Below, piece by piece: positions 10,468-40,861 of a stretch of DNA of 64,000 nucleotides. Made by a program: the position numbers and the translations under genes. This DNA comes from Candidatus Multivorans sp. (GTDB lineage: Bacteria; Acidobacteriota; Thermoanaerobaculia; Multivoradales; Multivoraceae). Where the stretch lies: assembly GCA_965238135.1 (NCBI GenBank), contig OZ250177.1:4192599-4256598 (forward strand), written 5' to 3'. Below the pieces are notes generated by a model, which saw only the letters and a program-made list of their open reading frames with translations, was not told the origin of the DNA and did not search any database. How positions within the stretch are numbered: position 1 is the stretch's first letter; every line of letters begins with the position of its first letter.

Positions 10468-13400
10468 TCATGTGAATGCGTGCAGTACTTCGACAAACTC
10501 CGCGACGATGTCGACGGCACCGGAACCCGCATCGTCGTCCGCGTCCAACTCGATCGGCTCGAAGTCCGGGTTCAGTGGCTCCAACGTGATCCGGACATGG
10601 CGCCACGGACCGTCTCTTGCAGACCGCTTCTCGCTCCGGTACCGCTTCACCGTGAACCGCTCGCCGGTCTCCGGGTCGACCGCGTCCCGTAGACGCGCCA
10701 GAACGATCCGCCCGTTGCGGCTGCCGGCCCTGGGGCGACGGAAGAGGCAGACGGCGCCCTCCGGGATCCGTGGCGCCATCGAGCGGCCGACGACGGCGGC
10801 TGCGAACATGCCGGGTGTCAACGAGTGTCCAGAGTCGACCTCGATCCAGCGCGCGGCCGAATCGACTTCATTCAGGACGCCGTGAGCATCGCCGAAGCCG
10901 CCTGCCGCTACCTCAAGGTCCTCCAGCAGCGGCACGCAGTTCTTGTAGCGGTTCTCCGGCGTCGGCTCGACGAATCGGAGTACACCGGCCTGGGCTGGTT
11001 GCGTCTCTTCCGGTGTCGCCGCCGTAGCGGTTGGTGCTTCCGGTGTCGCCGCTTCGAACCACACAGCGTCGGCGTCGACGGACTTCCGAACTTCATCGGC
11101 GCCGAGGTACATGGCGAGCCGGACGAAATGGCGCGCCATCGCTCCGGCGTCATCCAGGTCCGTCACGGTGATCTCGACCACCTCGTAACCTTGTTGGCGC
11201 AGCCAGTACCGGATCTCTCGGTCCTGCTCGGCGGTGCGGGGATTGCCGTGCAGGTGCTCACTCAGGCCGTCGAGGTAGAGGCACACATCGGGCATGCCGC
11301 TGTGGCCGCGGTAGATGGCGTCGGGCGTCGTCGTGCCCAGACCCGGGCCGAGGTCGATCTGTTCGCCCCGCACACCTTCGTCAAAGCCCGCCGCCGCTAG
11401 CAAGTGCTTGAGGCGGCGCTCGGCCTCGTTCACCGGCTGTGCGGTTGCCTCCTGCCCGGCGGGCGTGGCAGCGGGAATGGGATGTGAGAGCGACAGCTCG
11501 CGCCCCCATAAGCGCAGACACCCCAGCGCTGTCTTTCGATTGAGATGCTTGTGGTAGTAGCCGTTCCGGAACGTCTGGAGGCAGTCGATGCACGAGTGGT
11601 CGCAGCCGGACGCGCAACCGTCGACAACGGCCTCCGCGGCCTGAGCGACCTCTTCGAAGCGCTCGACGAGTTGATCGAGCAGGCCCGAACCGCCTGGCAT
11701 CGGGTCCCACAGCAGAGCGTTCACTTGGGGGCGGTCGACTTTACCCACGACCAGGATCTGCAAGTCGTCCAGGTGCATGTCCAGCACCCCGGCGGCGCCG
11801 AACCGAAGTGCTTCCAGCACGCTGTAGGCGGTCGAGGGCTCAGGAAGGCCCGGAAGCGAGAGGACGTCGGCAGTGACGTCGGCGTGAAAGCCGATCCGAT
11901 CCACCGGGCGCCCGCACCGCTCCAGGTGGCTCTTGGCGAACTCCGTCTGTTGGCGCTCGGAGGACAGCGGCGAGACACTTTGGCCGCAGACCGTACATAC
12001 CGGGTATCCCAGACCGGAACCGTCGCCGATCGCGGACGACGAGCCCACATTGACCAGGCGCAGCTCGACCCCGTGACGTAGTAACGCATCCTGCTCGCCC
12101 CAGTGGAAGGCGCGGCCGCCGCGGTGCCCTTCGCGTTCGACGCCGTGGACCGCAACCGCCATCTGGAAGCGGTAGTCCTCGTCGTCCGAGATCTGGGATT
12201 GATGGGCCAGGTCCACGTCACAGACCGCGAGCGTGCGAAGCGCCCCGCCGCTGATCGTCGATGCGGGAGCGCCGGCGTCGCACTGCCGCACCGCCTGGTT
12301 CTCGGTCGAGACCTCGAACGCAGGCATCTCCTCTCGGTCCTCGCCTCCCCCGCGCAGGAACCTCCTGGCCACGAAACGGTGTCCGTTGGCGTAGATCAGG
12401 TTGCCCGGGACGTACTCGCGCAGCGCGATTCCGGTCGGCCGGGGCAGGTTGAACGCGAGCGCCCCGGAGTGCCAGACCGGCACCTCGGCCATCGCCTGGA
12501 CGGACCCTGTCTCGAGCCCGTAGCCGGGGAGGAAGCCCTGCGCCGCCAACACGTTGAACGTGTTCGCGTCGTGATGCCCCTGGGCGTCCCGGCGATTCCG
12601 CCGCGCCTGTCCCTTGAGCCGCTTGACCAGGCGGTCGCAACGGTAGAACAGGGCGTCGTCCTCCGGGTCGAGCGTGCCGTGCTGGCGGCGGGTCTCGTGC
12701 AGCCTCTCCAGTTGGGCGAGCGCCCACTCCAGCCGGCGCCGCAGCGACCGCTCGGCTTCCTCGAGGCCCGAGGTGAAGGAGTCGACGCAGCGGCCCAGAG
12801 CCTCTGGCGTAACCGCCGCGGCGTCCGCTGCTGGCCAACCTTGAGCGAAAGCCGCTTCGGCTTCGGCGAGAAGGGTGCGGCGGTGCCGGCGGATGACCTC
12901 GGCGAGGGGCCCGAAGTCGAACGGCACGGTACGTACGGAGTTGCCCTCGAACAGCCAGGACGAGACGCGGCGCGGCAGGCAGCGTTCGAGCGCCATTCGG
13001 ATCTGCTCCTTCTCGGCCGCAGGAGGTCCGCCGGATGCTGTGGCGTCTTCACGGCTGAGCCGCTGCAATGCGGTGAGGACAGAGGCGTTCACGTGCTTGC
13101 GGACCATCACGTAGTTGCTCAGGTTGAAAGCCGGCGGGTCGACTCGGCCGGCGAGTAGCTTCTCGGGCTGCGCGAAGTAGGCGCGGTCGTGGGACACAGG
13201 CCGGCAGTACGTGAGATCGACGGCCATCCGATGACGTCGGCCGGCGCGGCCGGCCCGCTGCCAGTAGTTGGCGGGCAGGGGCGGTACGTTGCGCATCAGC
13301 ACCGCATCCAGGGCGCCGATGTCGACCCCGAGTTCAAGGGTCGCGGTGCAAACGAAGCAGTTCACCGCGTCGCTTCGACCCTTGAACAGGTTCTCCAGCC

Positions 13401-17834: not shown

Positions 17835-18242
17835 CTCGTCCCGCAGACGGAGGCTGCGACTGATGATCGGGTAGAGGAAGCACTCCGTCTTGCCGGAGCC
17901 GGTGCCGGTAGAAACGAGTGTCGAGCGACCCCCGACGATCGCGCGGATCGCCTTCTCCTGGTGCCGGTAGAGCTGCGAGACGGCGCTCGGAATCCGCTGC
18001 TCCAGATGAGGATGAAGCAGCCCCTCGGCCGCCAGGTTCGCCACCGCCGCGCCGCCGCGAAAGGGCCGCGAGAGGCTGACGAACGGCCCTTGCAGCAACG
18101 GCGACCGCCGCGCCTCGTCAAGCGACAGCAGTTCCCGCATTTGCCCATGCAGGTGCGGGTCCGCGAACGGATAGGCCCGCAACTGGTAGCGGAGAAAGCT
18201 CTGGAGGACCTTCTCCGTGAAGACGACTGGGTTCAGAGCCAT
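17835..18242 (-). CDS. Giant helicase, 5' portion (codons 1-136, Walker A STGTGSGKTECF), separated from the rest by the IS110 element
   Basis: MALNPVVFTEKVLQSFLRYQL...STGTGSGKTECFLYPIISRSLRLRDE. The paralogous copy at 19915-20700 reads straight through ...RLRDEGAAAGISAVIVYPMNAL, which pins the insertion point. Confidence 0.8.
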
Positions 18243-18551: not shown

Positions 18552-19022
18552 CTACGGCCGCTCCAAGCTGACGGTCCGTGCCGGTCCGTCGTAGGTCAAC
18601 ACAAGGTCGTTGAGGATGTCACGTCCGACTACGGCGATGAGGTGGAATCTCGCCAAATCGAGGCTGGCAACTCGGAGCGGCCACGATCCCATGCCGTCGA
18701 GCACCACTTCGACCTCGAAGCTCGGAGAGTTGATGTTCTTGTGACTGTCGTAGCGGAGGAAGGGAATCGAGTCGACCGACACCAAGCCGGCGTTCAACGC
18801 GGTTGTGGCGTCAATAACGGTCGTGTCGGCCCCGGTATCGAGGAGGGCGAAGCCCGACACGATGTCTCCCACGCGAACTCCTTCGCGCGCCTTTCGGCCC
18901 CGGTACGCGGGGTGGTAGCGAAGCGTGATGGGGAAGGTGGGGCGCCCGCGCTCGTCGTAGCGGGCCCTAGGCACGAAGGAGGGTCGGCATGAATACCGGC
19001 TCGGGGCGGGTGCCGCACTCAC
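18552..19022 (-). CDS. Retropepsin-like (clan AA) aspartic protease
   Basis: ALLDTGADTTVID contains the D-T/S-G-A catalytic motif in a ~150 aa single-domain protein. The start codon is uncertain because it overlaps the upstream small ORF. Confidence 0.6.
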   Translation of the reverse strand: MSAAPAPSRYSCRPSFVPRARYDERGRPTFPITLRYHPAYRGRKAREGVRVGDIVSGFALLDTGADTTVIDATTALNAGLVSVDSIPFLRYDSHKNINSPSFEVEVVLDGMGSWPLRVASLDLARFHLIAVVGRDILNDLVLTYDGPARTVSLERP

Positions 19023-19329: not shown

Positions 19330-20700
19330 GGGTGCCGCCGGCACCGCCGAGCAGGTCGGCCGTGCGGACCGTGCGGGCGCGGCAACTGCGGCACCGGTAG
19401 ACGCCGCGATGGGGCGACAGCTTGATCCGGTCGGCGTCGACCTGGTAGACGCCGCTGGCGTTCGGCATCGCGCGGCCGCGGGTGCCCAGAAGCTGCACCT
19501 GCTTCAGCAGGCCGCGCTCGGCCAGCATCTCGAACAAGCTCCGCAGCAGCTCCCCCGCCTGCTCCTGCTCGGCGCCCCACTTCGCGGCCATCTGCCTCAT
19601 CGTGGTCTGGCCGCCCTCGCTCAGCCACTGCAGGACGCGGCTGGGATTGTCGCCGGGGCGGCGTTTCAACTTGACGCCCCGTCCGCGATCAACGAGCGCT
19701 GGCGGAACCGGCGTGCGTGGTCCTTCATCCATCCAGGCGGCATCCTGGCGGTTGTCGCAGAACACGAGCAGCCGCGGCCGCTCCGAGTGGTGGACCATGT
19801 CCTGAGCCAGAACGTGAACGTCGGCGGCGTTGCTGGCGCGCACGGGCCGCGCCGGTTCGCGGTAGCGGCCGCCTCCGCCTCGGCCGCCCAACGCGTTGCA
19901 CGAGAGGCAACTCGTCAGGACCCCTGGAAGAGCTCGGCGTCCCGCTGGCGGGTGAAAAGCAGCTCCAGTTGCTTCACGTTCGTGAGCAGGATCCGCGGTT
20001 GCTCGCCAGCCGAACGCATCGCTTGCCGCGAGCAGGCCTCTTCGGCCGGGAACACGCTCTCGCCGCTCTTGGCCGCCCGTACCGCCTCGAGCTGCGCCTC
20101 GTAGTCCGAGCGGGAAGACCCCGGAGGAAGCCTGACGCCGCCCACGTCGCCTTCCCTCTCCGGCGTCTTGCCGGCGTACATCCCGAACGAAACGCCCGTT
20201 CCCGCCAGCAGCGAGCGCAGCCGCATCAACTGATCCTCGGCCAGCGCGTTCATCGGATAGACGATCACGGCGCTGATGCCGGCCGCCGCACCCTCGTCCC
20301 GCAGACGCAGGCAGCGACTGACGATCGGGTAGAGGAAGCACTCCGTCTTGCCCGAGCCGGTACCGGTGGAGATGAGGGTCGGACGTCCTCCTGCGATGGC
20401 CCGGATCGCTTGTTCCTGGTGGCGGTAGAGCTCCTCGATATCAGCAGGGATGCGCTGCTCCAGATGCGGGTGCAACAGCCCGTCGGCCACCAGATCGGCC
20501 GGTGCCGCGCCGGTGCGGAACGGGCGCGAGAGGCTGGCGAACGGTCCTCGCAGCAAAGGCGACCGCCGTGCCTGATCGAGGGACAGGAGATCCCGCATCT
20601 GGCGATGCAATCGCGGGTCCGCAAACGGGTAGGCCCGCAGTTGGTAGCGGAGAAAGCTCTGGAGGACCTTCTCTGTGAAGACGACCGGGTTCAGTGCCAT
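19330..20700 (-). pseudogene. Decayed partial duplicate (copy B) of the giant helicase 5' region, with internal deletions and frameshifts
   Basis: 20700-19915 encodes helicase aa 1-262 at ~90-95% identity to copy A. Further 3', pieces matching copy-A aa ~700-760 and ~1040-1150 follow in other frames (ORF 19280-20341). The duplication boundary lies only ~22 bp upstream of the ATG. Confidence 0.75.
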
Positions 20701-20887: not shown

Positions 20888-22048
20888 TCAGCCCAGCGGT
20901 TCCAGGTCCAGCAGCAGCCGCGACGCCGCAACGGCCTCGACATTCGGCGCAAGCGGGAAGGTCTCGTTGCCGCCGTGGACGATGAAGGCTCGCTCCAGGC
21001 CGAGCGTGTCCATGGCCGAACGGAGCGACTGGCTGATTCGTGGACTCACCGTGCGCTTGATCTCGAAGCCCAGACGCCGGTTGCCCGCGATCACGAGAAG
21101 GTCGAGCTCGGCGCCGGCATGGGTGGCCCAGAAGTAGCACTGATCGCTGCGCGCCCCCAACCTCGCCGCGATCTGTTGGACAAGGAAGCCCTCCCAGGAA
21201 GCGCCCAGTTGCGGATGGGACTCGACAGCCTCCTTCGTGTCGAGACCGAGCAGAGTGTGCAACAGACCTGTATCGGCGAGGTACACCTTGGGAGACCTCA
21301 CTTGCCGCTTCCCGACATTCTCCAGCCATGGGCCGCACTGCCTGACGACCAGAGTCGATGTCAGCAGGTCGAGGTAGCGCCGCACCGTGGTGTCCGCGAC
21401 ACCGAACGAGGAGGCGAACTGGGAGCTGTTCCAGGTTCGGCCGTGGTAGTGCGCCAGCATCGTCCAGAAGCGCCTGAGCGTGACCGCGGATATCTGGATC
21501 CCGAGTTGCGGCAGGTCCCTCTCCAGGAACGTCTGAATGAAGGCCCGGCGCCATTCGGCGCTCTCCGCGTCGGACTCCGCCAGAAAGGAGAGCGGGAAGC
21601 CTCCGCGGATCCAGAGCCGATCGAAGTCGTGAACTCCCACCTCCTCCAGCCCCAGCGGCTCCAGGTGGTGGTAGATGATCCGCCCGGCGAGCGATTCCGA
21701 AGACTGACGAACGAGGTCGGGCGAGGCGCTGCCCAGGATCAGGAAGCGAGCTCGCCTCTCGGGACGGTCGGCCAGCACCCGGAGCACGGGGAAGAGCTCC
21801 GGCATGCGTTGGACTTCATCGAGGACGACGAGTCCCGCGAGCCCCTCCAGCGCCAGTTCGGGTTCCCGCAACCGCCCAAGATGCCGAGGGCTCTCGAGAT
21901 CGAAGAAGTGGGATTCCTCCTCCCTCTGCGCCAGGACCTCTTTCGCCAGCGTCGTCTTGCCGATCTGGCGCGCTCCCAGAAGACCTACGACCGGGTACCG
22001 GTCGAGCAGGTCCATCAGTCTGTCGATGTGCCGCTTTCGTTGAATCAC
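20888..22048 (-). CDS. AAA ATPase of the DUF4143 family (COG1373)
   Basis: VVGLLGARQIGKTTLAKEVL Walker A and DUF4143-like C-terminal region. Confidence 0.75.
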   Translation of the reverse strand: MIQRKRHIDRLMDLLDRYPVVGLLGARQIGKTTLAKEVLAQREEESHFFDLESPRHLGRLREPELALEGLAGLVVLDEVQRMPELFPVLRVLADRPERRARFLILGSASPDLVRQSSESLAGRIIYHHLEPLGLEEVGVHDFDRLWIRGGFPLSFLAESDAESAEWRRAFIQTFLERDLPQLGIQISAVTLRRFWTMLAHYHGRTWNSSQFASSFGVADTTVRRYLDLLTSTLVVRQCGPWLENVGKRQVRSPKVYLADTGLLHTLLGLDTKEAVESHPQLGASWEGFLVQQIAARLGARSDQCYFWATHAGAELDLLVIAGNRRLGFEIKRTVSPRISQSLRSAMDTLGLERAFIVHGGNETFPLAPNVEAVAASRLLLDLEPLG

Positions 22049-22094
22049 CGACTTATGATACTTGAGATCTCGGCGGTCGCCGCCGGATATTCAA

Positions 22095-22330
22095 GCGCAG
22101 AGATGTTCGATCAGATCGGACTGTTCTTGCGGGACCGCCGCTTCCCTGCGTGCGACGTGAACGAGGACATGGGGAAGCGCCCGGAAGGGCCGGACTACGG
22201 CGTCTTCGATTTCGTCGACCTGTTCGCGCGGGCGGTCCTGAACAAGCCGTTCGTGCGGCTGTCGAAGCGGGAGAAGGCCGCCCTCGTGAAGAGGTTCGAG
22301 CACAAGGTGAGCGATCACCTGCCGCTTTGG
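22095..22330 (+). pseudogene. Possible C-terminal fragment of an endonuclease/exonuclease/phosphatase (EEP) family protein
   Basis: ...FEHKVSDHLPLWIRL resembles the EEP C-terminal SDH-P motif. No N-terminal domain. Weak. Confidence 0.25.
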
Positions 22331-22406
22331 ATCCGACTGCCGATGCCGCGCTACGCCAGGGAAGAGCGGCGGCGGCCGGTGTCGTCCGCCTCCGGGGCGC
22401 TCGGCC

Positions 22407-24026
22407 TCAGGCGGCCCGCGACGGCACTCTCTCCCGCGCCACCACCGCCTCCAGGTGAGGCGGCGGTCGCCACAGGCATTCCATGACGTAGCGCAGGTCT
22501 ATCGGCCGGCCGTCCCAAGCCGGCATCGACTCCTTGCCTGTGATCACGATGCCAGCGTTCTCCAGGTATTCGATCAACTCGCGGGCGGCGTCAGTGCCGA
22601 TTGGTGGCGGCGCGGGACTCCGCTCCAGGGGCCGCCTTCGAGAATCGAAGAACTCCACGGCGCCGTCGTCGTTCATGCGTACGCTGAAGCCGCCTTCATG
22701 GAGTGCGCGATGGTGCCTCCGGCACAGGAGCACGAGGTTCGAGAGCTTCGTTTCGCCGCCCTCGGCCCAGTGGACGACGTGGTGCGCGTCGCAGTGCTGC
22801 GAAGTGCAGCCCGGGAAGCGGCAACCCTCATCCCGGAACCGCAGGGCGCGACGGATGGGCGGCGGGATGGTGCGGGTCTTGCGGCCGACGCTCAGTATCT
22901 CGCCGGATCCGTGCCGCATGGGAACCTTCCCGGACTCGCAGGCGATACGCCGGGCCGTTTCCGCGGAAACAGGCACGTGCGAGGTTCCGAGCCAGGCGCC
23001 GCGGATGGCCGGGCGCTCGGATTGCTTCGTGGTCGCTCGAGGCGCCGACCCAGTGGCGCCTGGCGTTCCCGCGGGAACGTGGACACCTGTCGCGGCGATC
23101 CCCGCTGTGCCCGCGTACGACGTTTCCGCGGGAACGCGTGCGCCTGTCGTCGGCGCGGTGACGGCGTTTGCCGCTTCGCCCGTCGATGGCGTTCCCGCGG
23201 GAACGCCGGTCCGGCACTCATGCACCGGTTCTGCCGGATTCCGGAGTTCCGCTTCGCTCACATGGACCACGACCTGGTACCGGTCGCCGCTCGACCCTGG
23301 GTCGAGACCGCCCTTGAGCGCGCTCTCGGCAACGAGGCCGAGAGCGTCGGCGCGCCGCTTCCCGGCCGGAGGCCGGTTGGCCTCGTCCTTGCTTCCTTCA
23401 GTGCTGGCGTAGAGCTTCTCGTCAGCCGCGTCGAGGGCCCTCAGCAACACCTCGCCCACCTCGGGCGCCAGCCGTCCGCGAATCACGAACATGCCGTTCT
23501 CGTCGATGTGGGTGGAGACGTGACTTGAGGCCTCGCGCACTTCGTCGTCGCTGGCTTCGACCGTGCGATCGATCCTCCGCCACCCTCTGACCACGCGTTC
23601 GATGTGCGCGGCAGTGCCGGCCTTGCCCACGTCGACCAGCGACTCCTCCGTGTCGGGCCTGGCGATGCGGGTCAGCGCCCTCACCTTGGAGTAGGAGAGC
23701 TCGCCCCGCTTCATCGCGGCGCTCATCAGGGGCAGGTCGCCCAGAGCGCGGGCGACGCGCACCTTCTCGCGGGCCGCACCGGGCGCCAGGCCGATCCGCC
23801 AGGTGAGCCACTGCGCGCAACTCAAGAAGCCGTTGTTCCAACCTTCCTTCTCATCGAACTCGCGGATCAGAACCAGGAGTTCGAAGGTTGCCGCGTCGAT
23901 CCGCGCGGCGAGCGCAGCGATCTCCTCGCCCATGCGCTCCTTGGAACTCATGCCGGTTTGTTTGTCAATCATTGGTGTCGAGCGCCCTTGGGATTCCAGG
24001 GTTGGACGTGAATCGGAGGCCGCCAA
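22407..24026 (-). CDS. DUF222-domain HNH endonuclease (actinobacterial 13E12-repeat-type)
   Basis: N-terminal EEIAALAARIDAATFELLVLIREFDEKEGW (DUF222). C-terminal HNH region FRDEGCRFPGC...HCDAHHVVHWAEGGETKLSNLVLLCRRHHRALHEGG. The likely start is the MIDKQTG or MSSKERM codon inside the listed ORF. Confidence 0.8.
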   Translation of the reverse strand: MAASDSRPTLESQGRSTPMIDKQTGMSSKERMGEEIAALAARIDAATFELLVLIREFDEKEGWNNGFLSCAQWLTWRIGLAPGAAREKVRVARALGDLPLMSAAMKRGELSYSKVRALTRIARPDTEESLVDVGKAGTAAHIERVVRGWRRIDRTVEASDDEVREASSHVSTHIDENGMFVIRGRLAPEVGEVLLRALDAADEKLYASTEGSKDEANRPPAGKRRADALGLVAESALKGGLDPGSSGDRYQVVVHVSEAELRNPAEPVHECRTGVPAGTPSTGEAANAVTAPTTGARVPAETSYAGTAGIAATGVHVPAGTPGATGSAPRATTKQSERPAIRGAWLGTSHVPVSAETARRIACESGKVPMRHGSGEILSVGRKTRTIPPPIRRALRFRDEGCRFPGCTSQHCDAHHVVHWAEGGETKLSNLVLLCRRHHRALHEGGFSVRMNDDGAVEFFDSRRRPLERSPAPPPIGTDAARELIEYLENAGIVITGKESMPAWDGRPIDLRYVMECLWRPPPHLEAVVARERVPSRAA

Positions 24027-24315
24027 ACCGGCCTTTCAGGGCCTCCGCGCCGAAGGCTGATAATCTAGCATGGGTGGCCGGTGAACACAAGCAATTCAAG
24101 CCGATGAACCCGTGCGACGCAGGCGGTAGCTGCGGCCCGAGGGACTCGGGCGCCGTGGTCTGCCTCCATTGGCTCCCAAAGGTCGAGGGGTGCCAGTTGT
24201 CCTTCACGGTGCGGAACCCCGGAGCGCCCCCCGCGTCAAAGCGGGCTTCAATAAAGAGCGACAGGTTCTGCGGGAGCCGAAGAAGCGTCAGTTGAGGGGG
24301 GAGGAAGGATGCAGC

Positions 24316-24708
24316 TTAGCCTGCATCTTCCAGAACCACCTGTCGTTCGGCGACCGCGAACTCGGCCACGGACACGGGCTGCTGCTCACCGGAGGCGAGG
24401 CGCCGGAGCCGTGTGTCGTGCTGCCAGTCGAAGTCCCGGCAAACCACGATCGCATGAATTGGAACCCGTTCCCTTGCGCCACGCACCTCCCGAAGCAGTC
24501 CATCCGCCAAATCGAACGCGTTGGACATTCGGCCGGACATTGTGCTGATCGCGGCCAACTGGTCGCTGATCAATACTGCTGGCCGATAAAGAGTGGCCGC
24601 GGCGGTAAGTACGAGAGCAGGTGATTCCTCGAGACCGAGGCGTTGCCCGACTTCGGTGGCCGTCCTTTGGGAGGCAAGACGGTCGAACCGGAGTGCGAGA
24701 ACAGGCAT
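24316..24708 (-). CDS. Hypothetical protein (130 aa) in a lower-GC patch abutting the ISL3 element
   Basis: ORF only. An in-frame stop lies 70 bp upstream. No recognisable family. Confidence 0.3.
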   Translation of the reverse strand: MPVLALRFDRLASQRTATEVGQRLGLEESPALVLTAAATLYRPAVLISDQLAAISTMSGRMSNAFDLADGLLREVRGARERVPIHAIVVCRDFDWQHDTRLRRLASGEQQPVSVAEFAVAERQVVLEDAG

Positions 24709-24886
24709 GCCTCGCTTCCGTAAGCCCGCCCACGGCCTGAACGACGCGAGCCGCCTTCCCTGACCCCGCTTTCCCTGTCACTATGCTGTCGGTTGAGGTG
24801 CCGCCGAGTCGCGAAAGCAGGGTCTCTGCCGGCTCCCTCGGGATAGGCCTCTGCCGAATGAGGCGGCCTTGTGCACCTTCAAGATA

Positions 24887-26190
24887 GAGCTCTTCAGGCT
24901 TTCGTGTGGAATGTGAGCGAATCGGGGTAGAGGTCGAGTCCACCGAGATGGAAGTAGATGGCGTTGCGGAACCGGTCTCGGTTTCGGTAGCCGCGAGCTG
25001 ATTTCTTGAGCCATTGAATGACCGAGTTGATGCCTTCAAGGCGGGCGTTGGTGACCCCCCGCTCGATCGCGTTCAGCACTCCTTCGAGATGGGCCTTGAG
25101 CATCCGGGCCACACGCTTCATCGGCTCCAGCCGGCTGCGGATCGCCCACGAGTACCAGCCCTTGAAGGTTGCCAGCGCCTCGGCCCGGTCCGGCACCTCC
25201 CACATCAGCATGGCGAACTCCTTCAGATGCCAACAGCGGGCAGTCTTCGAGGTGCCGTCGATCAGGTCCTTGAAGCGGACCCAGGATCGCGCCGGCACCC
25301 GGTCCGGGTGGTACAGCCACAGATAGCGCGTGTCGGCAAGACGCTCGTCGCCCAGGCTGAGAAGGAGCCGGTGCTCCTGTCGCCGCACCTCGTCCACCGC
25401 ACCGCCGAGATGAGCCGCGACGTGGAACTTGTCGAACGCGATCTTCTTGTCTCCGTCCGAAAGGCCGGACACCGTCGCACTGATGTACCCGGGCCACATG
25501 TCCATCGCCACCGTCTCGATCTTCGCCCGCTCCGCCTCGGACAGCGAGCGGTAGTACGACGACAGAGCTTCCTTGCCGCGGCCGTCCGCCACGTGGTGCA
25601 CCCGCGGCGTGCCTTCAAGGTCCGCCACCACGGTCACGTATTCGTGCCGCTTCTGAAACGACGTCTCGTCCACCCCCAGAAGCCGACACCCAGACGCAGC
25701 GCCGCGACGCTCAAGACCACGCTTCACCGCCCGACCCATCACGCCGTCCACCTGGTCCCAGCTCAAGGCCAGATGCTGAGCCACCGCCGAGATGCTCGCC
25801 GCCCCCAGCCAGTCGATGATCAAAGCCTCGAACAGCGCGGTGAAACGCGAACCCGCGTCCGACCACGGCACGCCGATCGTCCGCACTCCGTGCTCGGCGC
25901 ACCTCACCCGAGGCACCTCGGCGGTGAGAATCGTCCTGTATTGGCAGGTCGGCAGATGACGCCAGCTACGACGACGGGCGTCGTGGCGCTTGACCGACCC
26001 CCCGCACTCCGGACAACCCAACGACTCGCCGCCGCCATGAGCGACGAAGACCTCCACCTCGCACGCCTCAAGCCGCAGCTCGACGCCCGTCACTTCCCAT
26101 GGACTCTCGATACCCAGAATCCGACCGTACAAGTCTATGTCTCGCATCCCGCGAGACTACGGCATCTCCACCATCAACCCGGAAGAGCCC
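24887..26190 (-). mobile_element. ISL3-family insertion sequence with imperfect terminal IRs (GAGCTCTTCAGG / GGGCTCTTCCGG) and a 7-8 bp target-site duplication AAGATAG
   Basis: IRs and flanking direct repeat read directly (24880-24888 and 26191-26198). Confidence 0.8.
24894..26147 (-). CDS. ISL3-family transposase
   Basis: 417 aa. Zn-finger CPECGG followed by the ...LLGVDETSFQKRHEYVTVVADLE... and ...YRNRDRFRNAIYFH... motifs typical of ISL3 transposases. Confidence 0.9.
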   Translation of the reverse strand: MRDIDLYGRILGIESPWEVTGVELRLEACEVEVFVAHGGGESLGCPECGGSVKRHDARRRSWRHLPTCQYRTILTAEVPRVRCAEHGVRTIGVPWSDAGSRFTALFEALIIDWLGAASISAVAQHLALSWDQVDGVMGRAVKRGLERRGAASGCRLLGVDETSFQKRHEYVTVVADLEGTPRVHHVADGRGKEALSSYYRSLSEAERAKIETVAMDMWPGYISATVSGLSDGDKKIAFDKFHVAAHLGGAVDEVRRQEHRLLLSLGDERLADTRYLWLYHPDRVPARSWVRFKDLIDGTSKTARCWHLKEFAMLMWEVPDRAEALATFKGWYSWAIRSRLEPMKRVARMLKAHLEGVLNAIERGVTNARLEGINSVIQWLKKSARGYRNRDRFRNAIYFHLGGLDLYPDSLTFHTKA

Positions 26191-26402
26191 AAGATAGTAG
26201 CGATCGGTGGCGGTACGAACCGCGACTGCCTCTTGGGCAGGTTCGTTGATTCGCCGCATGGGATAGCCCCGACTGGCCAGTTCGTCCGCCTGGAGGCATC
26301 GCTCGGAAACTGAGCCACTCATCGCTCGGAAAGTGATCCACCCTCGGCCCTTGGCCGGTAGCTTGGTCTTGTACAGGAGACCAAGGCGATCGGAGGAAGG
26401 AC

Positions 26403-27845
26403 TTGCTGAGGATGGATCAGGTTCATGTTATTCGGTACCAGGTGCTGAGGGAGGGTCGGAGCCAGCGCTCGGTGGCCCGCGAGCACGGTGTGAGCCGCAA
26501 CACGGTGCGCAAGTACCTGGATCAGAGCGAGCCGAAGCGGGTGGAGAGCAAGCCCCGGCGTCGCTGGGTGACGGAGCGGATGGCGCCGCGTCTGGAGGAG
26601 TTGCTGCGCAGGTGGTCTCGCCGGACGACGGCGAAGCAGCGTCTGACGGCTACGCGCCTTCATCGGCAGTTGCTGGAGGATGGCTACGAGGTCGGGATCA
26701 CGACGGTGCGCAGCTACGTTCGGGAGTGGAAGCGTCAGCGGCGGGAGACGTTCATTCCGCTGGTGCACCGTGCCGGCGAGTGCGGCCAGGTGGACTTCTT
26801 CGAGGTGACGGTGGAGGAGGACGGTGTGGCTCACCGGGTGTGGAAGTTCCTGCTGCACCTGCCGTACTCGGGCCGTTCGTTCGTGTGGCTGTACGACCGT
26901 TGCGACCAGGTGGCGTTTCTCGACGGCCATGTGCGGGCGTTCGCTCACTTCGGCGGCGTGCCGCTGCGGCTGGTCTACGACAATCTGAGTGCGGCGGTGC
27001 GTCGTCGGGTCGGCGCCGAGCGTCAGTTGACGGATCGATTCCAGGCGCTGGTGAGCCATTATCTGTTCGAGCCGTGCTTCGCCCGTCCCGGCGAGGGCCA
27101 CGACAAGGGCAGTGTGGAGTCACGGGGCAAGGGGATCCGCCTGGCGCACATGAGTCCGGTGCCCCAAGGGCGCACTCTGGAGCAGATCGCAGGCGAGGTG
27201 CTGGCTTCGGTCGACGCGGCACACAGTGAGCGCGCCCGGTGGGAGGAGGAGCAGGAGGCACTGCGAGAGCTGCCGGCGGCCGGCTTTGAGCCAAGGAAGC
27301 TCAAGATCGTGCGGGCGTCGCGCCAGGCGACGGTGCAGTTGGGCGGTGCGACCTACTCGGTTCCCTCGCGCTGGAAGAGCCTCGAGATCCACGCCCTCGT
27401 CGGCGCCAGCGAGATCACCTTCACCTGCCGCGACGAGGAGTACTGCTGCGACCGCATGCGGCCGGGACAGCGCTTGGTGCGCTACGCGCACTACTTCGAG
27501 GAGCTGTCCAGGAAACCTCAAGCGGTGCGTCAAGTCGCTCCAGAGCTGCTCGCAGAGCTCGGTCCGGCGTACCGCAAGCTATGGAGAATGCTGGAGTTGC
27601 GGCACGGCGCCCTGGAGACGGCGCGGCTCTTCGCCAAGCTGTTGAGCGTGGTCACAGACCACGGCAGCGAGGAGGTCGCCTCCGCCCTCGAGGAGGCCTT
27701 GGCCGCCGGCCGCTTCGACCTGCTGAGGCTCGTCGAGCGGCGTCCCGCCCCCGAGATCGAGGTGCCGGAGACGCTCCGGCGCCACGAGGTCGAGAGCGCC
27801 AGAGCCGCCGACTTCGACGTGCTGCTTCAGGAGGCGGCATCGTGA
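26403..27845 (+). CDS. istA: IS21-family transposase IstA
   Basis: N-terminal HTH (VIRYQVLREGRSQRSVAREHGVSRNTVRKYL) plus DDE core. 480 aa. Confidence 0.9.
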   Translation: MLRMDQVHVIRYQVLREGRSQRSVAREHGVSRNTVRKYLDQSEPKRVESKPRRRWVTERMAPRLEELLRRWSRRTTAKQRLTATRLHRQLLEDGYEVGITTVRSYVREWKRQRRETFIPLVHRAGECGQVDFFEVTVEEDGVAHRVWKFLLHLPYSGRSFVWLYDRCDQVAFLDGHVRAFAHFGGVPLRLVYDNLSAAVRRRVGAERQLTDRFQALVSHYLFEPCFARPGEGHDKGSVESRGKGIRLAHMSPVPQGRTLEQIAGEVLASVDAAHSERARWEEEQEALRELPAAGFEPRKLKIVRASRQATVQLGGATYSVPSRWKSLEIHALVGASEITFTCRDEEYCCDRMRPGQRLVRYAHYFEELSRKPQAVRQVAPELLAELGPAYRKLWRMLELRHGALETARLFAKLLSVVTDHGSEEVASALEEALAAGRFDLLRLVERRPAPEIEVPETLRRHEVESARAADFDVLLQEAAS

Positions 27846-28594
27846 GCCGGGCCGCGCGCAGGGCCGTCATCAAAGAGGGCCTCAAGACGCTCAAGATGCC
27901 TTCCGTGCTGCGCGACTACGAGCAGAGGGCCCGTCAGGCCCAGGACGCACAGTGGGACTACGAGGACTACCTCTGGCAACTGCTCGAGGCCGAGATCCGG
28001 GATCGTGAGGCCCGCACCGTCGAGCGCCGGTTGCGAGCGGCTCGCTTCCCCGACCACAAGACGCTCGAACAGATCGACTTCGAGGCCTTGCAAGGCGTCT
28101 CCAAACCGAGGCTGCGCGAGCTGGCCTGCTGCGACTACATCGACCGCGGCGACGACGTGGTCCTGGTCGGACCCATCGGCACCGGCAAGACGCATCTCGC
28201 GATCGCTCTCGGCATCGAGGCCGCAAAGCGCCGGTACCGGGTCTGGTTCCGCAAGGCCTCCGATCTCGTCCGCGATCTGATCGAAGCCCGCGATCAGCGG
28301 GAGCTGGGGCGCCTGCAGCAGCGGCTTCAGCGAGTGGACCTGTTGATCTGCGACGAGCTCGGCTTCGTGCCCTTCGACCGCGCCGGCGGCGAGCTGCTCT
28401 TCAACGTCTTCGCCGACCGCTACGAGCGCCGCTCGACCATCGTCACCTCCAACCTCGCCTTCTCCGAATGGGTCCGGGTCTTCGGCGACGAGAAGCTGAC
28501 CACCGCTCTGCTCGACCGCCTCTCCCACCACGCCCACATACTCGCCACCAAGGGGTCCTCCTATCGGACACGGCTGCGGACCAAGACGTCATGA
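27842..28594 (+). CDS. istB: IS21-family helper ATPase IstB
   Basis: GTG start overlapping the istA stop. Walker A GPIGTGKTHLA, Walker B LLICDELG, ...SNLAFSEW... motif. Confidence 0.9.
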   Translation: MSRAARRAVIKEGLKTLKMPSVLRDYEQRARQAQDAQWDYEDYLWQLLEAEIRDREARTVERRLRAARFPDHKTLEQIDFEALQGVSKPRLRELACCDYIDRGDDVVLVGPIGTGKTHLAIALGIEAAKRRYRVWFRKASDLVRDLIEARDQRELGRLQQRLQRVDLLICDELGFVPFDRAGGELLFNVFADRYERRSTIVTSNLAFSEWVRVFGDEKLTTALLDRLSHHAHILATKGSSYRTRLRTKTS

Positions 28595-28857
28595 GCCTCA
28601 ACGGCGAGATACGCACAGCCTACGACCCCAAGTACCCGCCGCCGCTCAGCGAGCTGACCCGGTGCGGTCGGCTGCGGAATCTGCCGGTCTGGCGGAAAAC
28701 GGCGGACCGTTTCCCGCCAGACCTTGGAAAACCGGCAGACCGGTTTCCCACAGCTACCGCAGCCGCGGCGGCTACTCACTGAAGGAGACCCAAAAGGGCA
28801 GACTCGCGTACACTCGAAACACGGCCGAGGTGGCTCACTTTCAGATCGCTGATTGGC

Positions 28858-29442
28858 TCACTTTCCGATCGTCGCCAACATCCGCCAACCACTTCCGGCT
28901 GATCGTCTTGTGTAGGGCGTCGTGAGCGATCGCTGAGAGCGTCTGTTGGACGTCCCTGGGGTCGGCGATGAAGTGCGCCTCCAGTCCCCACTCCACCTTT
29001 CCCCAAGCTCCGCCTCGCCAATCGGTCGGACTTGGACTCGCCGGAGGCGTCGGAACGGGCCCGCGGCATTGCATGTCCAGGAGCGACAGAGTTGCTCGAA
29101 GGGCTCTCTGCGGGTTTTGGCTGCCAGGAAGACGCCGGTGAACGCCTCGAGGGTCGCCGATTGGTCGGCTGCGTCACACAACTCGGAGAGCTGCGGAGCC
29201 TCGGAGCCCGATGCGAAGACGAATCTATCGACGTTGCCAGCCAGTTCTTCGTCGATCGCTTGAAGAAGCCCGATGGAAGCGGAGGTCGGCCAACTCCACT
29301 TGCCGGATGTGCTGCGGCGTTTTACTTGGTGGAGTTCGCGCCGGTGCCCTTTCGTCACAACGAACTCGGCCTTGTCGAGACCGGGCTCTTCAAGGCGAAT
29401 GCTGTCCGAATCTCCGCGCCGGAGACGGACGGACTCGGCCAT
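28858..29442 (-). pseudogene. Hypothetical gene truncated by the IS21 insertion (189 codons, then read-through into the IS right end)
   Basis: The ORF runs 5 codons into the IS21 terminal repeat. The N-terminal region (AEFVVTKGHRRELHQVKRRSTSGKWSW...) has no clear family. Confidence 0.35.
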
Positions 29443-29582
29443 CGTCCACCCTTCTCGTAGCGGATACCCAGCTTGGCGGCGGGCCCTCCGGGCAGGGTCA
29501 TGTTCCGGGAACCCAGAACGGCGAGAGCAGCAACGTTGCTTTCTTGGCCTGCCTCATGAACCTGGGGCGACGAGCATCAGTG

Positions 29583-30662
29583 TCACGCATCCGTGGGGAA
29601 CCCCAGCAGGCCACCCAATCTCTGCTCCGCGAACAGGAGTCGGAGGCAGTCAGGAAGCTGCCTCTGCGGATTCTGGTAGAGCCGGACGCGAGCGATCCGC
29701 TCCGCACCCAGCGTGGCGTTGTCGCAGATCAGAACAGCCGCGGCGCGTGAAAGATAGGGCGCGAAGGGTCGGTTCTCAACGCCGGTTTCTTCTGGTGAGT
29801 CTGGCGCATGTATCGCCCGGAGTTCGTCCAGGTTCCAGGCAAAATCGGGGTTGCAGATGTTGACGGCGATCAGAAAGCACTTCTCCTTGAGGTTCGTCCT
29901 TCGCCAGTCTTCGGCCTTCTTGGCCAGGGCCCGAGTGAGTGGCGCCTGCGCGCTTACCGCGCCGCCTCGTGCTGGACCCCAGACTCGGCCCTGGCCGTTC
30001 GATGCGCGGGGTGGATCCAGGCGGCCGGTCAGTTCCCAGCCTCCTTCGCTGATCGTCTCTGACAGATAGCACTCTGCTTCGTGGCGACCCAGCCGCGAGT
30101 GCAACTCCCGCACTTCGTCTGGAGTGTGCGCCTTCATGAGGTCCTGGAATGGCCTGACGAGACCCCTTTGCCCCAGGGTTCTGCGAAGCTCGCCTTCGGC
30201 CCGAAGCCAGAGGTCCGAGTGCAGTCCCGTGAGGCCCTCCCCGATCTTGCGAACTGCGTCCTGCTCGTTCGCGTTCGAACTGAGAACGCCCCGGCCAAAG
30301 CCGCAGACGGTTGCCTCGACGTAGAACTCGTCCTCGCCGTGGCCCGCGAGAAAGTCGACGGTTGCACCAGAGGCACCGGGGAAGCCCGGCTCGACTTTGA
30401 TGGAGCAACCGAGGCGTTTCAGAATCGTGAAGACTTGTAGCTCGAAGTACGCGCTGAGGAATTCGGCGTCTCTGGACGATTGAAGGCGGTGCTTGAGGCG
30501 GTGCCTGCCGCTTTCAGGGAACGCCAGAAACCAGTGTTCCATCCACTCACGAATTGGGATCGCTTCCCTGCACGCTCCGCGCTCAAGGAACTGAAATGTG
30601 GTTTCGCCGTTATCGGCTGGCCCGTGTTTCTGTGCCACGGGTCGGAAGAGTGCGGTAGTCAT
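29583..30662 (-). CDS. Hypothetical protein (359 aa) in the DrmD/methylase operon
   Basis: ATGA overlap with the upstream DUF3644-like gene. Possible nuclease-like core (VDFLAGHGEDEFYVEATV), but no confident family assignment. Confidence 0.5.
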   Translation of the reverse strand: MTTALFRPVAQKHGPADNGETTFQFLERGACREAIPIREWMEHWFLAFPESGRHRLKHRLQSSRDAEFLSAYFELQVFTILKRLGCSIKVEPGFPGASGATVDFLAGHGEDEFYVEATVCGFGRGVLSSNANEQDAVRKIGEGLTGLHSDLWLRAEGELRRTLGQRGLVRPFQDLMKAHTPDEVRELHSRLGRHEAECYLSETISEGGWELTGRLDPPRASNGQGRVWGPARGGAVSAQAPLTRALAKKAEDWRRTNLKEKCFLIAVNICNPDFAWNLDELRAIHAPDSPEETGVENRPFAPYLSRAAAVLICDNATLGAERIARVRLYQNPQRQLPDCLRLLFAEQRLGGLLGFPTDA

Positions 30663-31726
30663 GGCCTGTTTGGCCCACTCTTGGGCCTCCAGCCCTTCAC
30701 CCGGTCGAACTCAGCTTTGTCACTGAGCTTCCGGAGAAGGAACTTCACCCAAGCCTCCTTGTAGCCGTAGCTCCTGGCCAACTCGTCGTAGATGCAGAAC
30801 TCCGGCCGAGTGGATGCCGGATTGTCGGCGCCAGTTGGAGGCCGGGCATTGTACGTCTTCCAGGCTTGCGTGTGGGTGTGCATGGAGAACTCCACGGGCA
30901 GGTGCTCGCGAAGGCGGCCCACGACTTCAGAAGGTCTGATGAGGCCGGCGCTAGCGACGGGCGTCCGCTTCTCTTTGATCATCGCAGCAAATTGCTTCAA
31001 CCGCTTCATCTCTTCTGGTTTCGTTGTGTCGTAGGGCACAAACTCCACTGCGAGGTCGGCTGCGCTGGCCCGGAGTGCGAGCTTTGGAAGCAAGAAGACC
31101 CTGACTGAGTACGACGAGCTCTCCAGCACTTCTGCCGGAAGACCGGCACGGTAGCTCTGGATGAAGTCCAAGAGGTCCTTGGCTGCCGACGAGCTCAGGC
31201 GTCGCAGCGCCTCCTTCTGCCCCTCGGGCCGGAAGGCAGAGAACTGGAGAGCCAAATCGAGATGCTCGGCAAGTGCTTGGTCAGTGCCGAACTTCGCGAC
31301 GAGAAGTTCCTCGAAGTTCATCAGCAGCGCTTGGCATTCGCCATAGAGCGCGGGATCAAGTTCGGGATGATGTCGATGTGCGATCTTGTTCCGGAGAAGC
31401 GACATGAACTCGAGGTTTCTGCGTTGTGGAGGGTTCTGGTCGCGATAGAACTGTCTGACACATGCGTTCAGTTCCCAGTGCTTCGGTTCGCCGTCGACTC
31501 TCTCGTACCTGGTGCCGCGTCCGGTGCCGCTTCGCACATACCATGGCTTTTGGCCGCGACGGTAGAAGATCGCGTGGAAGAGAGACGTCCACGCTATCGT
31601 CATGAGGACGGCAAACGTCCGCGTCCGAAAGGCGACGCCGGGCCTGTTGTAGATCTCAACCGCAGCCAGGCAAGCGTCTTCGGCCTGCTTCAGGTGGTCC
31701 TTGACGATCTTCGGGAGTCCGGCCAT
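30659..31726 (-). CDS. DUF3644-like protein
   Basis: Real start MAGLPKIVKDHLKQAEDACLAAVEIYNRPGVAFRTRTFAVLMTIAW matches the remembered DUF3644 N-terminus (IEIYNKP...F.ILM..AWE). ...LRNKIAHR... follows later. The first 142 codons of the track ORF are Pro/Arg-rich antisense overlap with the methylase gene. Confidence 0.5.
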   Translation of the reverse strand: MAGLPKIVKDHLKQAEDACLAAVEIYNRPGVAFRTRTFAVLMTIAWTSLFHAIFYRRGQKPWYVRSGTGRGTRYERVDGEPKHWELNACVRQFYRDQNPPQRRNLEFMSLLRNKIAHRHHPELDPALYGECQALLMNFEELLVAKFGTDQALAEHLDLALQFSAFRPEGQKEALRRLSSSAAKDLLDFIQSYRAGLPAEVLESSSYSVRVFLLPKLALRASAADLAVEFVPYDTTKPEEMKRLKQFAAMIKEKRTPVASAGLIRPSEVVGRLREHLPVEFSMHTHTQAWKTYNARPPTGADNPASTRPEFCIYDELARSYGYKEAWVKFLLRKLSDKAEFDRVKGWRPKSGPNRP

Positions 31727-31779
31727 TGTCAGTCGATTCTCGTCTCTCGTGGGCTTTGGCCTGGGCAGAATTTCGGTGG

Positions 31780-40678: not shown

Positions 40679-40795
40679 TCCTTCTGTGGCCGGCCCGGCT
40701 GGTGGCGTCGCCGCCGGTCCGGATGTTCGGTTCGACGGCGGCGGGATGTTGTCCTTTTGGAAGGGGGGAGTGTATGCCTGCCGCCAGGTTGTCGC

Positions 40796-40861
40796 CTCCG
40801 ACTCCGAGATTTCAGCGCTCCGACTCCGAGATTTCAGGCTCCAGACTCCGAGATTTCAAGG
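40796..40861 (+). repeat. 3 x 22-bp tandem direct repeat CTCCGACTCCGAGATTTCAG(NN) in the 180-bp region upstream of the SNF2 gene
   Basis: Read directly. The third unit has a 1-nt insertion and overlaps the last codons of the GT2 gene. Confidence 0.7.

Follow-up and report, generated by a model that had tools for sequence, protein, structure and literature searches.

ARMADA is an anti-phage defence system that was defined in 2025 by Bell et al. (bioRxiv preprint, PMC12458937) and whose mechanism is still open. It shares two genes, the counterparts of ArmA and ArmB, with DISARM class 1 and combines them with a Druantia-like helicase of the YprA family, ArmC (PMC12458937). Type II, represented by ArmABCD of Escherichia coli, is the type that has been tested experimentally, not Type I, and its direct, non-abortive defence requires the Walker motifs of ArmA and ArmC as well as the methylase motif.

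The stretch of DNA analysed here (the window) comprises 64,000 nucleotides from Candidatus Multivorans sp., a member of the Acidobacteriota, and contains a gene that we assign, with a probability of roughly 0.8, to armC, which encodes the helicase-nuclease (YprA family, DUF1998) of an ARMADA Type I system, in an architecture that ends in an S24 peptidase domain. This estimate covers the identity and the architecture and excludes the mechanism of the S24 domain. Compared with the described Type I ArmC, the protein adds about 170 residues of LexA/UmuD-type S24 sequence after the nuclease. The features of the locus are collected in Table 1.

Table 1. Features of the armC locus and predicted domains of ArmC (window coordinates).
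Feature	Position	Strand	Details
PDC-S11 candidate defence gene	9552..10442	-	lies 26 nt beyond the armC stop; PADLOC E 1.8e-87
armC 3' fragment	10468..16143	-	codons 137-2027 (1891 codons) and stop; DEAH box D269-H272 at 15736-15747
LexA/UmuD-type S24 module, residues ~1857-2027	10471..10983	-	complete; predicted cleavage A1883|G1884 (10900-10905), S1924 (10780-10782), K1969 (10645-10647)
Vsr/DUF559-fold PD-(D/E)xK nuclease, residues ~1706-1835	11047..11436	-	predicted structure
MZB/DUF1998 zinc-binding domain, residues 1580-1658	11578..11814	-	Pfam E 1.5e-7, 32.5 bits (cutoff 24.2)
Helicase_C (RecA2) core, residues 1043-1106	13234..13425	-	Pfam E 1.2e-10, above gathering score
IS110-family insertion sequence	16144..17834	+	1,691 bp; junction ambiguous by 1 nt; splits armC after codon 136
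IS110 transposase	16534..17784	+	Pfam DEDD_Tnp_IS110 (E 9e-35) and Transposase_20 (E 2e-11); preceded by ~390-nt non-coding left end
armC 5' fragment	17835..18242	-	codons 1-136; ATG start, MALNP...; Walker A GTGSGKT, K118 at 17889-17891
Degraded second armC copy	19364..20700	-	three collinear pieces (gene nt 1-779, 1957-2213, 2676-2991); 88-94% identity; internal deletions (blastn)
Variable cargo slot between armB and armC	20888..31750	.	orthologs hold other cargo in the same slot
PDC-S01 AAA_14/DUF4143 (cargo slot)	20888..22048	-	
DUF222-HNH (cargo slot)	22407..24026	-	
ISL3 transposase (cargo slot)	24894..26147	-	
IS21 istA/istB (cargo slot)	26403..28594	+	
359-aa ORF (cargo slot)	29583..30662	-	no assignment
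PDC-S19/DUF3644 (cargo slot)	30659..31750	-	
armB: PglX-like / type IIG-like N6-adenine methyltransferase	31780..37269	-	PADLOC REase_MTase_IIG 1212 bits, DrmMI 8e-117; Pfam Eco57I 7.5e-22
armA: BrxHII/RapA-like SNF2 helicase	37250..40855	-	PADLOC DrmD 3e-188; NCBIfam DISARM_DrmD 647 bits; Pfam SNF2-rel_dom and Helicase_C

Structure of armC and its interruption by an IS110-family element

The two minus-strand armC fragments join in frame into one gene encoding 2027 amino acids, with the MALNP start that is common to all armC orthologs. The 3' fragment contains no internal stop codon and no frameshift, and the intact ortholog P0001 matches it with 92% identity over 100% of its length. At the junctions of the insertion sequence, bases 16143 and 17834 correspond to one single base in six close relatives that carry an uninterrupted gene; this empty site establishes that the insertion was clean and that the join is correct, and in the degraded armC paralog of the window the sequence spanning this position is LRLRDEGAAAGISAVIVYPMNAL. 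A first-pass annotation of the DNA had supposed a single giant reading frame interrupted by an IS, which is confirmed, and had named intact orthologs as the check, which these relatives supply. Rfam gave zero matches in and around the element, the bridge-RNA-type family included. As judged from its sequence, the armC of this genome is dead, having been inactivated recently by the IS110-family insertion with the remaining ORF intact.

An IS inside the gene is what would fit a local artefact, in which the fusion arose through lost stop codons between adjacent genes or through a mis-join across the element. The same Pfam set is nevertheless shared by more than 120 clusters of single ORFs of 1970-2035 amino acids, and uninterrupted syntenic orthologs exist, so that the chance of such an artefact is negligible. 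The refuting condition set in the first-pass annotation, separate neighbouring genes that were joined only here, fails likewise, because the fusion of the domains in more than 100 intact orthologs speaks against a local loss of stop codons. The degraded second copy of armC adjoins the PDC-S01 gene, as does the intact armC in two orthologous loci (L011 and L025).

Domains, partner genes and family assignment

The helicase portion of ArmC begins with a Pfam DEAD match at residues 93-179 (E 3e-21, above the gathering score) and continues with the RecA2 core and the DUF1998 domain, whose cysteines C1646, C1650, C1654 and C1657 occupy invariant columns of the ortholog alignment. These Pfam matches are hallmarks of the YprA family, in which the SF2 helicase core is joined to an OB-CON-DUF1998 module. 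CxxC pairs are also kept at C526/529, C617/620, C631/634, C659/662, C988/991 and C1004/1009. The region that follows is assigned a Vsr-type nuclease fold from its predicted structure and is predicted to be active; E1711, D1744 (TTPD), D1761 (YLDG), H1768 and D1777 are invariant and H1766 is nearly so. At the sequence level, Pfam searches for DUF559 or Vsr with the whole of ArmC and 28 C-terminal ortholog regions returned just MTES_1575, in two of the 28 (E ~0.09), and an HMM of the C-terminal region gave only a chance match among PDB sequences. The order helicase, Zn-rich inserts, DUF1998, Vsr/DUF559 and S24 proposed in the first-pass annotation stands, with the DUF559 part coming from the predicted structure after the sequence search had failed. 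The nuclease had also been taken for a novel appendage, which it is not, as a C-terminal Vsr-type nuclease of ArmC has been described previously (PMC12458937). Pfam found neither a PLD domain nor YjiV_N in the window ArmC, the C-terminal region consisting of the Vsr fold and then S24, and ArmC passed no NCBIfam model.

Upstream of armC on the same strand, 13.5 kb away in the window, lie armA and armB. The start codon of armA is uncertain, homology beginning near residue 63-70. Cyanobacteria, Actinomycetota, Acidobacteriota, Gemmatimonadota and Planctomycetota are among the groups in which the operon of SNF2 helicase, Eco57I/PglX-like methylase, zero to six cargo genes and helicase-S24 recurs, with armA and armB either adjacent to armC or set apart from it by cargo. 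The cargo slot of the window has taken up three transposable elements along with further defence candidates. The armC of the window is a fresh pseudogene within a defence island that is decaying and IS-ridden.

The order A-B-C found in the window and its orthologs has been noted for some ARMADA lineages (PMC12458937), here with variable cargo between armB and armC, and is shared with Type II. Type II differs in that it has ArmD and, in many cases, additional EEP and Vsr domains that are inactive; neither ArmD nor these domains are seen here. In place of ArmD, a RelE-GajB-like helicase, armC is followed in the window and in the orthologous loci by small or variable genes that have no relation to it. 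When ortholog contigs were looked up in Table S1 of PMC12458937, at least one of 12 was present among the entries listed: contig DASYEH010000008.1 (725 kb) is entered there as carrying an 'ARMADA Type I helicase'. The contig contains the S24-bearing locus L032, which has the order A-B-C and 58% identity, although the protein of that entry may differ from the L032 gene. The assignment to Type I is based on gene content, the lack of ArmD and one supplementary-table entry.

The first-pass annotation had placed the protein with Druantia DruE or a fusion of the DISARM proteins DrmA and DrmB; the family is instead ARMADA, given the SNF2 and PglX-like partners and the lack of DruH and PLD. An effector of the DruE type (type III-like) would agree with the top PADLOC matches of ArmC, which are DruE3 (E 2e-112) and DruE1 (5e-100), with profiles of comparable length (2023-2055). 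DruE is, however, merely the nearest model available, because PADLOC 2.0 (2023) predates ARMADA, and the two proteins share a lineage, with BrxA-like, zinc barrel and MarR-like inserts (PMC12458937). The partners are different: PADLOC detects neither DruH nor any other Dru partner (DruA-D, DruM/F/G) among the neighbours in the window, and the orthologous loci also lack them, the SNF2 helicase and PglX-like methylase being conserved there instead. The C-terminal nucleases differ as well, DruE ending in PLD in type III and in an inactivated Vsr in types I and II, whereas the Vsr fold of the window protein retains its invariant acidic and His residues. Together with the entry of an ortholog's contig as an ARMADA Type I helicase, this leaves a Druantia identity very improbable.

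A DISARM class 1 system with a fused DrmA-DrmB, in which the downstream PD-(D/E)xK gene takes the place of DrmC, is more improbable still. It would account for the DUF1998 fused to the helicase and for the neighbours that match DrmD (over the NCBIfam DISARM_DrmD cutoff) and DrmMI, yet these are exactly the two genes that ARMADA by definition shares with DISARM class 1, alongside a Druantia-like YprA helicase. In PADLOC, ArmC matches DrmA with an E-value of only 1e-12, compared with 1e-112 for DruE, there is no PLD-type DrmC nearby, and the gene is one ORF and not a separate DrmA and DrmB.

The PDC-S11 gene, the supposed DUF4268-like replacement of DrmC, has a sub-threshold DUF4268 match (Pfam 20.8 bits, cutoff 27). 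It stands directly downstream of armC only in five close Acidobacteriota relatives (L007, L009, L010, L012 and L013) and is missing from this position in the other lineages, and was rejected as a system component or DrmC substitute in favour of a lineage-specific neighbour.

The S24 module and its occurrence on other defence proteins

Peptidase_S24 is matched by Pfam at residues 1903-2007 of ArmC (E 7e-8, above the gathering score) and in all 28 aligned orthologs. In an hhalign comparison with E. coli LexA (94% probability), Ser119 and Lys156 of LexA align with S1924 and K1969. The GRSM...KRY Ser/Lys dyad recognised in the first reading of the sequence is correct. The predicted cleavage motif, L-(K/E)-A-A-A|G-x-F, lies 41 residues ahead of the Ser. 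Among 115 ArmC orthologs, the Ala before the cleavage site is kept in 114, the Gly after it in 113, and the Ser and the Lys in 114 each; Ser, Lys and the Ala-Gly site are all lost in one ortholog (P0070). The module is apparently a catalytically competent autoprotease. Its fold, its Ser-Lys dyad and the location of its S24 core at the C-terminus agree with those of LexA, lambda cI and UmuD, as does an Ala-Gly site placed about 40 residues before the Ser; the difference is that the module is attached to a helicase-nuclease of 1,850 residues and not to a DNA-binding domain.

More than 100 full-length orthologs from many phyla end in S24, and the window ArmC belongs to this large S24-bearing subclade. 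A neighbour-joining tree places the ArmCs with S24 in one crown clade, within which losses of the module are nested, and the existence of closely related ArmCs that lack S24 implies that the module is dispensable for the core function. It is foreign to the described Druantia and DISARM proteins, as had been pointed out from the start, and there is no mention of it in the text or supplements of the ARMADA paper that were searched (PMC12458937). A search of the literature, confined to one library, gave no relevant report of helicases, restriction enzymes or defence systems that carry a fused S24 or LexA-like domain.

A profile built on the ArmC-type S24 domain is specific, matching only 2,359 of 1.84 billion representatives at E<=1e-3. 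Type ISP, MmeI-like and ResIII/SNF2 proteins end in the same domain, which the profile scores at 220-270 bits. The cassette also accompanies Type I HsdR-like, Schlafen-type helicase, HNH, PLD and LlaJI domains, and its Ser and Lys are invariant there. The architectures were taken from 58 longer matches, and since most of the top matches are C-terminal fragments of metagenomic ORFs, their counts are not a census. We tentatively propose, at somewhat less than even odds, that S24 is a dedicated, horizontally shuffled self-cleavage cassette that links unrelated DNA-targeting defence proteins to a RecA/DNA-damage signal, and that its cleavage would expose a C-terminal ...AAA degron and destroy (or unleash) the nuclease. 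No description of enzyme-autonomous restriction alleviation or damage-licensed immunity of this kind was found in the library searched.

Possible direction of a proposed S24 switch

From what is known of ARMADA, DISARM and BREX, ArmB would methylate host DNA while ArmA and ArmC would translocate along unmodified invader DNA, which the Vsr-fold domain of ArmC may then cut. The conservation of the residues concerned suggests that S24 would cleave ArmC between A1883 and G1884 with S1924 and K1969 as the catalytic residues. Cleavage would then part the N-terminal working portion from the S24 core, as happens in LexA and cI, and it would leave a helicase-nuclease of 1883 residues ending in ...L-(K/E)-A-A-A, at the point where LexA-family proteins expose a degron. 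In LexA-like proteins, self-cleavage at Ala-Gly is followed by the exposure of degrons for Clp, Lon or FtsH, and at least one of these proteins, IrvR, needs no RecA for cleavage (PMC7101444).

The reading that we favour, while giving it slightly under an even chance, is that S24 acts as an off-switch responsive to DNA damage and RecA*, providing a built-in restriction alleviation through which the nuclease would be removed during host repair and re-methylation. In the restriction alleviation of Type I restriction-modification systems, ClpXP degrades HsdR after DNA damage. The logic is the same, in that a restriction motor is removed while unmodified host DNA forms, but proteolysis there acts in trans, whereas in ArmC it would be built in through self-cleavage.

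The first-pass annotation had put forward a damage- or RecA-like-triggered effector, which is one reading. In the opposite direction to an off-switch, S24 could act as an on-switch, the nuclease being restrained until self-cleavage, set off by RecA filaments that form on ssDNA of the phage, frees an active helicase-nuclease. The conserved cleavage site and Ser/Lys dyad are compatible with it, and the conversion of UmuD to UmuD' is a precedent for activation by S24 cleavage. Sensing of ssDNA or of replication intermediates is reported for related YprA systems (Druantia III), and DrmA of DISARM has an autoinhibitory loop. Proteins with the same topology as ArmC, a working N-terminal part and a C-terminal S24, are nevertheless inactivated by cleavage with exposure of a degron, as in LexA, cI and IrvR (PMC7101444). 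Moreover, constitutive activity would then have to be expected of the ArmCs without S24 that are nested in the same clade, and for the host's own SOS response to switch a nuclease on irreversibly would be dangerous in the methylation-based Type I and Type ISP systems that bear the same cassette. We regard the on-switch as unlikely and, by analogy with LexA, the off-switch as at least as likely as a RecA-triggered effector.

Alternatively, S24 could have a mainly non-regulatory role in dimerisation or in docking on the RecA filament, with cleavage being incidental or a constitutive turnover. The S24 domains of LexA, cI and UmuD dimerise and bind the RecA filament groove (PMC9926225), and translocating restriction enzymes often need two motors for cutting. 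The near-perfect retention of the Ser, the Lys and the Ala-Gly site, in the 115 ArmCs and on unrelated fusion partners alike, is difficult to account for unless cleavage is under selection, and we consider this role doubtful, ranking it below the on-switch.

How translocating restriction-type nucleases spare their own host while its DNA is being repaired has been worked out chiefly for Type I enzymes, in which proteolysis acts in trans. The conserved S24 tail of ArmC, present again on many further restriction enzymes, suggests that a DNA-damage switch is built in. For the Multivorans genome itself the finding is less exciting, its armC being a fresh pseudogene. For the family, the presence of S24 on ArmC and on at least half a dozen other restriction or defence classes yields the directly testable hypothesis that these enzymes carry their own damage-responsive switch; if true, this would connect innate immunity with the SOS response through the proteins themselves, and the S24 cassette might serve as a portable, damage-triggered degradation tag.

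The interrupted armC gene and the domains of its product

The helicase-nuclease gene armC is split into two pieces by an IS110-family element, which is inserted after the Walker A motif (K118) and before the next helicase motifs. That the join across the element is exact follows from two independent controls: another copy of armC in the window, now degraded, spans the site as ...LRLRDEGAAAGISAVIVYPMNAL..., and positions 16143 and 17834 fall on one nucleotide in six syntenic relatives with uninterrupted armC. Reconstructed ArmC has 2027 residues, no lesion besides the insertion and, by homology search, 92% full-length identity to an intact metagenomic ortholog; its inactivation is therefore recent.

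A non-coding stretch of ~390 nt (16144-16533) precedes the recombinase gene of the element. IS110-group elements encode a guide (‘bridge’) RNA in the non-coding stretch upstream of this gene; Rfam returned no match for 16144-16533. Just past the istB gene of an IS21 element, a 108-bp fragment (28670-28776) is 87% identical to nt 50-156 of this non-coding left end and may be a relic of a further IS110 copy.

ArmC matches four Pfam domains above their gathering thresholds, and conserved CxxC pairs are dotted between its two RecA-like halves. With the exact join, these matches confirm the giant, IS-split reading frame with helicase, DUF1998 and S24 domains reported in the first-pass annotation. 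The DUF559 module also proposed there was undetected by HMMER on ArmC or on 28 orthologous C-termini, and a profile search of PDB sequences found none. An AlphaFold2 model of residues 1701-2027 (28 orthologs as input, pLDDT 83.6) contains a pair of domains with a disordered linker between them. The first domain, on whose modelled fold the DUF559 assignment depends, is predicted to be a Vsr/DUF559-fold PD-(D/E)xK nuclease, with E1711, D1744, D1761, H1768 and D1777 invariant. The second is a LexA-type S24 domain, in which S1924/K1969 align with Ser119/Lys156 of E. coli LexA (hhalign, 94%). A LexA-type cleavage-site motif, L-E-V-A-A|G-G-F, lies 41 residues before the serine.

Features of the armC region (window positions) and Pfam domains of reconstructed ArmC (residues)
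Feature	Position	Strand	Remarks
PDC-S11 candidate defence gene	9552-10442	-	26 nt past armC; weak DUF4268
armC, 3' piece	16143-10468	-	1891 codons, stop at 10468
IS110-family element	16144-17834		1,691 bp; interrupts armC; transposase encoded on + strand
IS110 gene	16534-17784	+	DEDD_Tnp_IS110 E 9e-35, Transposase_20 E 2e-11
armC, 5' piece	18242-17835	-	ATG start, MALNPVVFTEK..., 136 codons in frame
Small ORF	18552-19022	-	between armC remnant and armC; LLDTGAD motif
Second armC copy, shredded	19364-20700	-	3 pieces, 88-94% identity
armB, large PglX-like/type IIG methyltransferase	31780-37269	-	upstream of armC
armA, SNF2 helicase	37250-40855	-	upstream of armC; DrmD E 3e-188
ArmC DEAD	residues 93-179
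ArmC Helicase_C	residues 1043-1106
ArmC MZB/DUF1998	residues 1580-1658
ArmC Peptidase_S24	residues 1903-2007

An ARMADA locus in a decaying island

A DruE identity or a DrmA-DrmB fusion had initially been suggested for this protein. Its best PADLOC models are DruE3 (E 2e-112) and DruE1 (5e-100), with DrmA at just 1e-12; although Druantia DruE thus provides the nearest profiles, Dru partners are missing from the window and the neighbours encode a SNF2 helicase and a PglX-like methylase, so that this identity gives way to ARMADA. As defined by Bell et al. (2025), the anti-phage system ARMADA comprises a Druantia-like YprA helicase with a C-terminal Vsr nuclease (ArmC), a BrxHII-like helicase (ArmA) and a PglX-like methylase (ArmB) (PMC12458937). 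ArmA and ArmB types are common to DISARM class 1, from which ARMADA differs in its Druantia-like YprA helicase. The gene set of the locus is that of ARMADA, and orthologs in other phyla occur either in a tight SNF2-methylase-helicase-S24 operon or with 1-6 unrelated genes between methylase and helicase.

Assignment to ARMADA Type I is well supported, though not proven. No ArmD was found, which counts against Type II; the A-B-C gene order is recorded for some Type I lineages; and Table S1 records an ‘ARMADA Type I helicase’ on the contig of a related S24-bearing locus (L032; 58% identical, A-B-C order) (PMC12458937). ArmA exceeds the NCBIfam curated cutoff for ‘DISARM system SNF2-like helicase DrmD’ (647 vs 610 bits), so automated annotation would probably label such ARMADA loci DISARM.

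The island, at ~9.5-40.9 kb, is decaying. Its armB-armC slot (20888-31750) holds PDC-S19/DUF3644, a 359-aa ORF, IS21, an ISL3 element, DUF222-HNH and PDC-S01, the PDC labels denoting PADLOC candidate defence families. The same interval in other lineages contains Fic; AIPR, ThiF and AAA_21; AbiJ_NTD4, ApeA_NTD1 and nSTAND3; or PDC-S19 (loci L001, L004, L006, L010 and L082), and it behaves as a cargo hotspot. The armC remnant keeps gene nt 1-779, 1957-2213 and 2676-2991 in order; it has lost its 3' end and two internal segments. Its immediate upstream neighbour is PDC-S01, and in two related loci (L011, L025) intact armC occupies this place, which points to allele replacement or tandem duplication, with decay afterwards. 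The small ORF beside it has sub-threshold retropepsin-like matches (RVP, Asp_protease_2; E about 0.01) and no tblastn homologs among 86 related loci. PDC-S11, whose D...ENQ motif near the N-terminus hints at PD-(D/E)xK, follows armC only in close Acidobacteriota relatives (L007, L009, L010, L012, L013; 64-76% identity).

Distribution of the S24 module

Homology searching recovered over 120 clusters, whose proteins are 1970-2035 residues long and match 100% of the query at 60-92% identity. Nearly all have the same four Pfam annotations, and among the sources that are named are Actinomycetota, Cyanobacteria, Planctomycetes, Deltaproteobacteria and Thermoleophilia. The fused architecture is therefore conserved and no local accident. 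The nearest genomes are Acidobacteriota MAGs (Thermoanaerobaculia, Holophagales, Vicinamibacteraceae; ~91% identity), which have flanking ABC-transporter genes in common with the window.

In 115 aligned orthologs, the pre-scissile Ala is kept in 114, the post-scissile Gly in 113, and Ser and Lys in 114 each. One protein, P0070 (1990 aa), is the sole ortholog of 120 to lack Ser, Lys and the Ala-Gly site, all lost together (GKAMEP, LRRY and ACAEF at the respective positions), the pattern expected if a self-cleaving unit decays whole.

Of the ArmC relatives in 86 loci, about half stop right past Vsr (query match to ~1832); the other half have S24. A neighbour-joining tree built on residues 1-1700 groups S24-bearing ArmCs in one large crown clade with a few S24-less members nested within it, and a few S24-bearing ones branch deeper, a topology that fits early gain followed by several losses. 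Given this patchiness, the module is an accessory of ArmC and not a core part.

When a profile restricted to the S24 module (A3) was searched against 1.84 billion representatives, just 2,359 proteins reached E ≤ 1e-3 and 481 reached E ≤ 1e-30, too few for it to be merely gathering ordinary LexA proteins. Many top matches are C-terminal fragments, and a Pfam scan was taken on the 58 longer ones. Beside S24 were found a Type ISP specificity domain with N6_Mtase/Eco57I (11 of 58), ResIII (10, three also matching SWI2_SNF2), the MZB/DUF1998 of ArmC (6), a Schlafen group-3 helicase (5), HNH_4 (5), a Type I HsdR-like C-terminal domain (T1RH-like_C; 2) and HSDR_N, Methylase_S, PLDc_2, LlaJI endonuclease and an MmeI-type enzyme (one each). 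Throughout this mixed set Ser and Lys never vary, nor does the Ala two positions ahead of the scissile bond; the Ala-Gly pair at the bond is kept in at least 90%. The ArmC-type cassette forms the C-terminus of non-ArmC proteins (P0123, P0134, P0141, P0152, P0217 and P0266, and alignment A4) and has apparently been shuffled between restriction and defence proteins that target DNA; no description of such shuffling was found in the literature searched.

A candidate damage-responsive switch

Domain architecture, partner genes and the retained catalytic and cleavage-site residues are observations; going by what is known of ARMADA, DISARM and BREX, ArmB would mark self DNA, ArmA and ArmC would act upon unmarked DNA and the Vsr domain would do the cutting; as in the LexA family, the S24 module would cut its own ArmC chain between A1883 and G1884. 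LexA-like cleavage splits the N-terminal working part from the S24 core and exposes terminal degrons for Clp, Lon or FtsH (PMC7101444), and the large ArmC fragment would end ...L-(K/E)-A-A-A. Many S24 fusion partners resemble restriction enzymes of the methylation-based kind, which would endanger the host during DNA repair; for this reason a DNA-damage-responsive off-switch, providing self-contained restriction alleviation, is favoured (probability roughly 0.45). RecA filaments formed on phage ssDNA could instead license an on-switch, which is considered less likely, and a mainly structural role of the module is slightly less likely still. The S24 switch may or may not depend on RecA, with IrvR as a RecA-independent precedent (PMC7101444).

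The first-pass observation is confirmed and its interpretation partly supported. Judged from its sequence, ArmC here is a dead member of a known, newly named system and represents a large subclade with a predicted LexA-type self-cleavage module. S24, LexA, UmuD, peptidase and protease go unmentioned in the ARMADA main text, domain table S2 and other supplements searched (PMC12458937). The same module is also carried by many proteins of restriction and defence, and the hypothesis that it is a switch is specific and easily testable.
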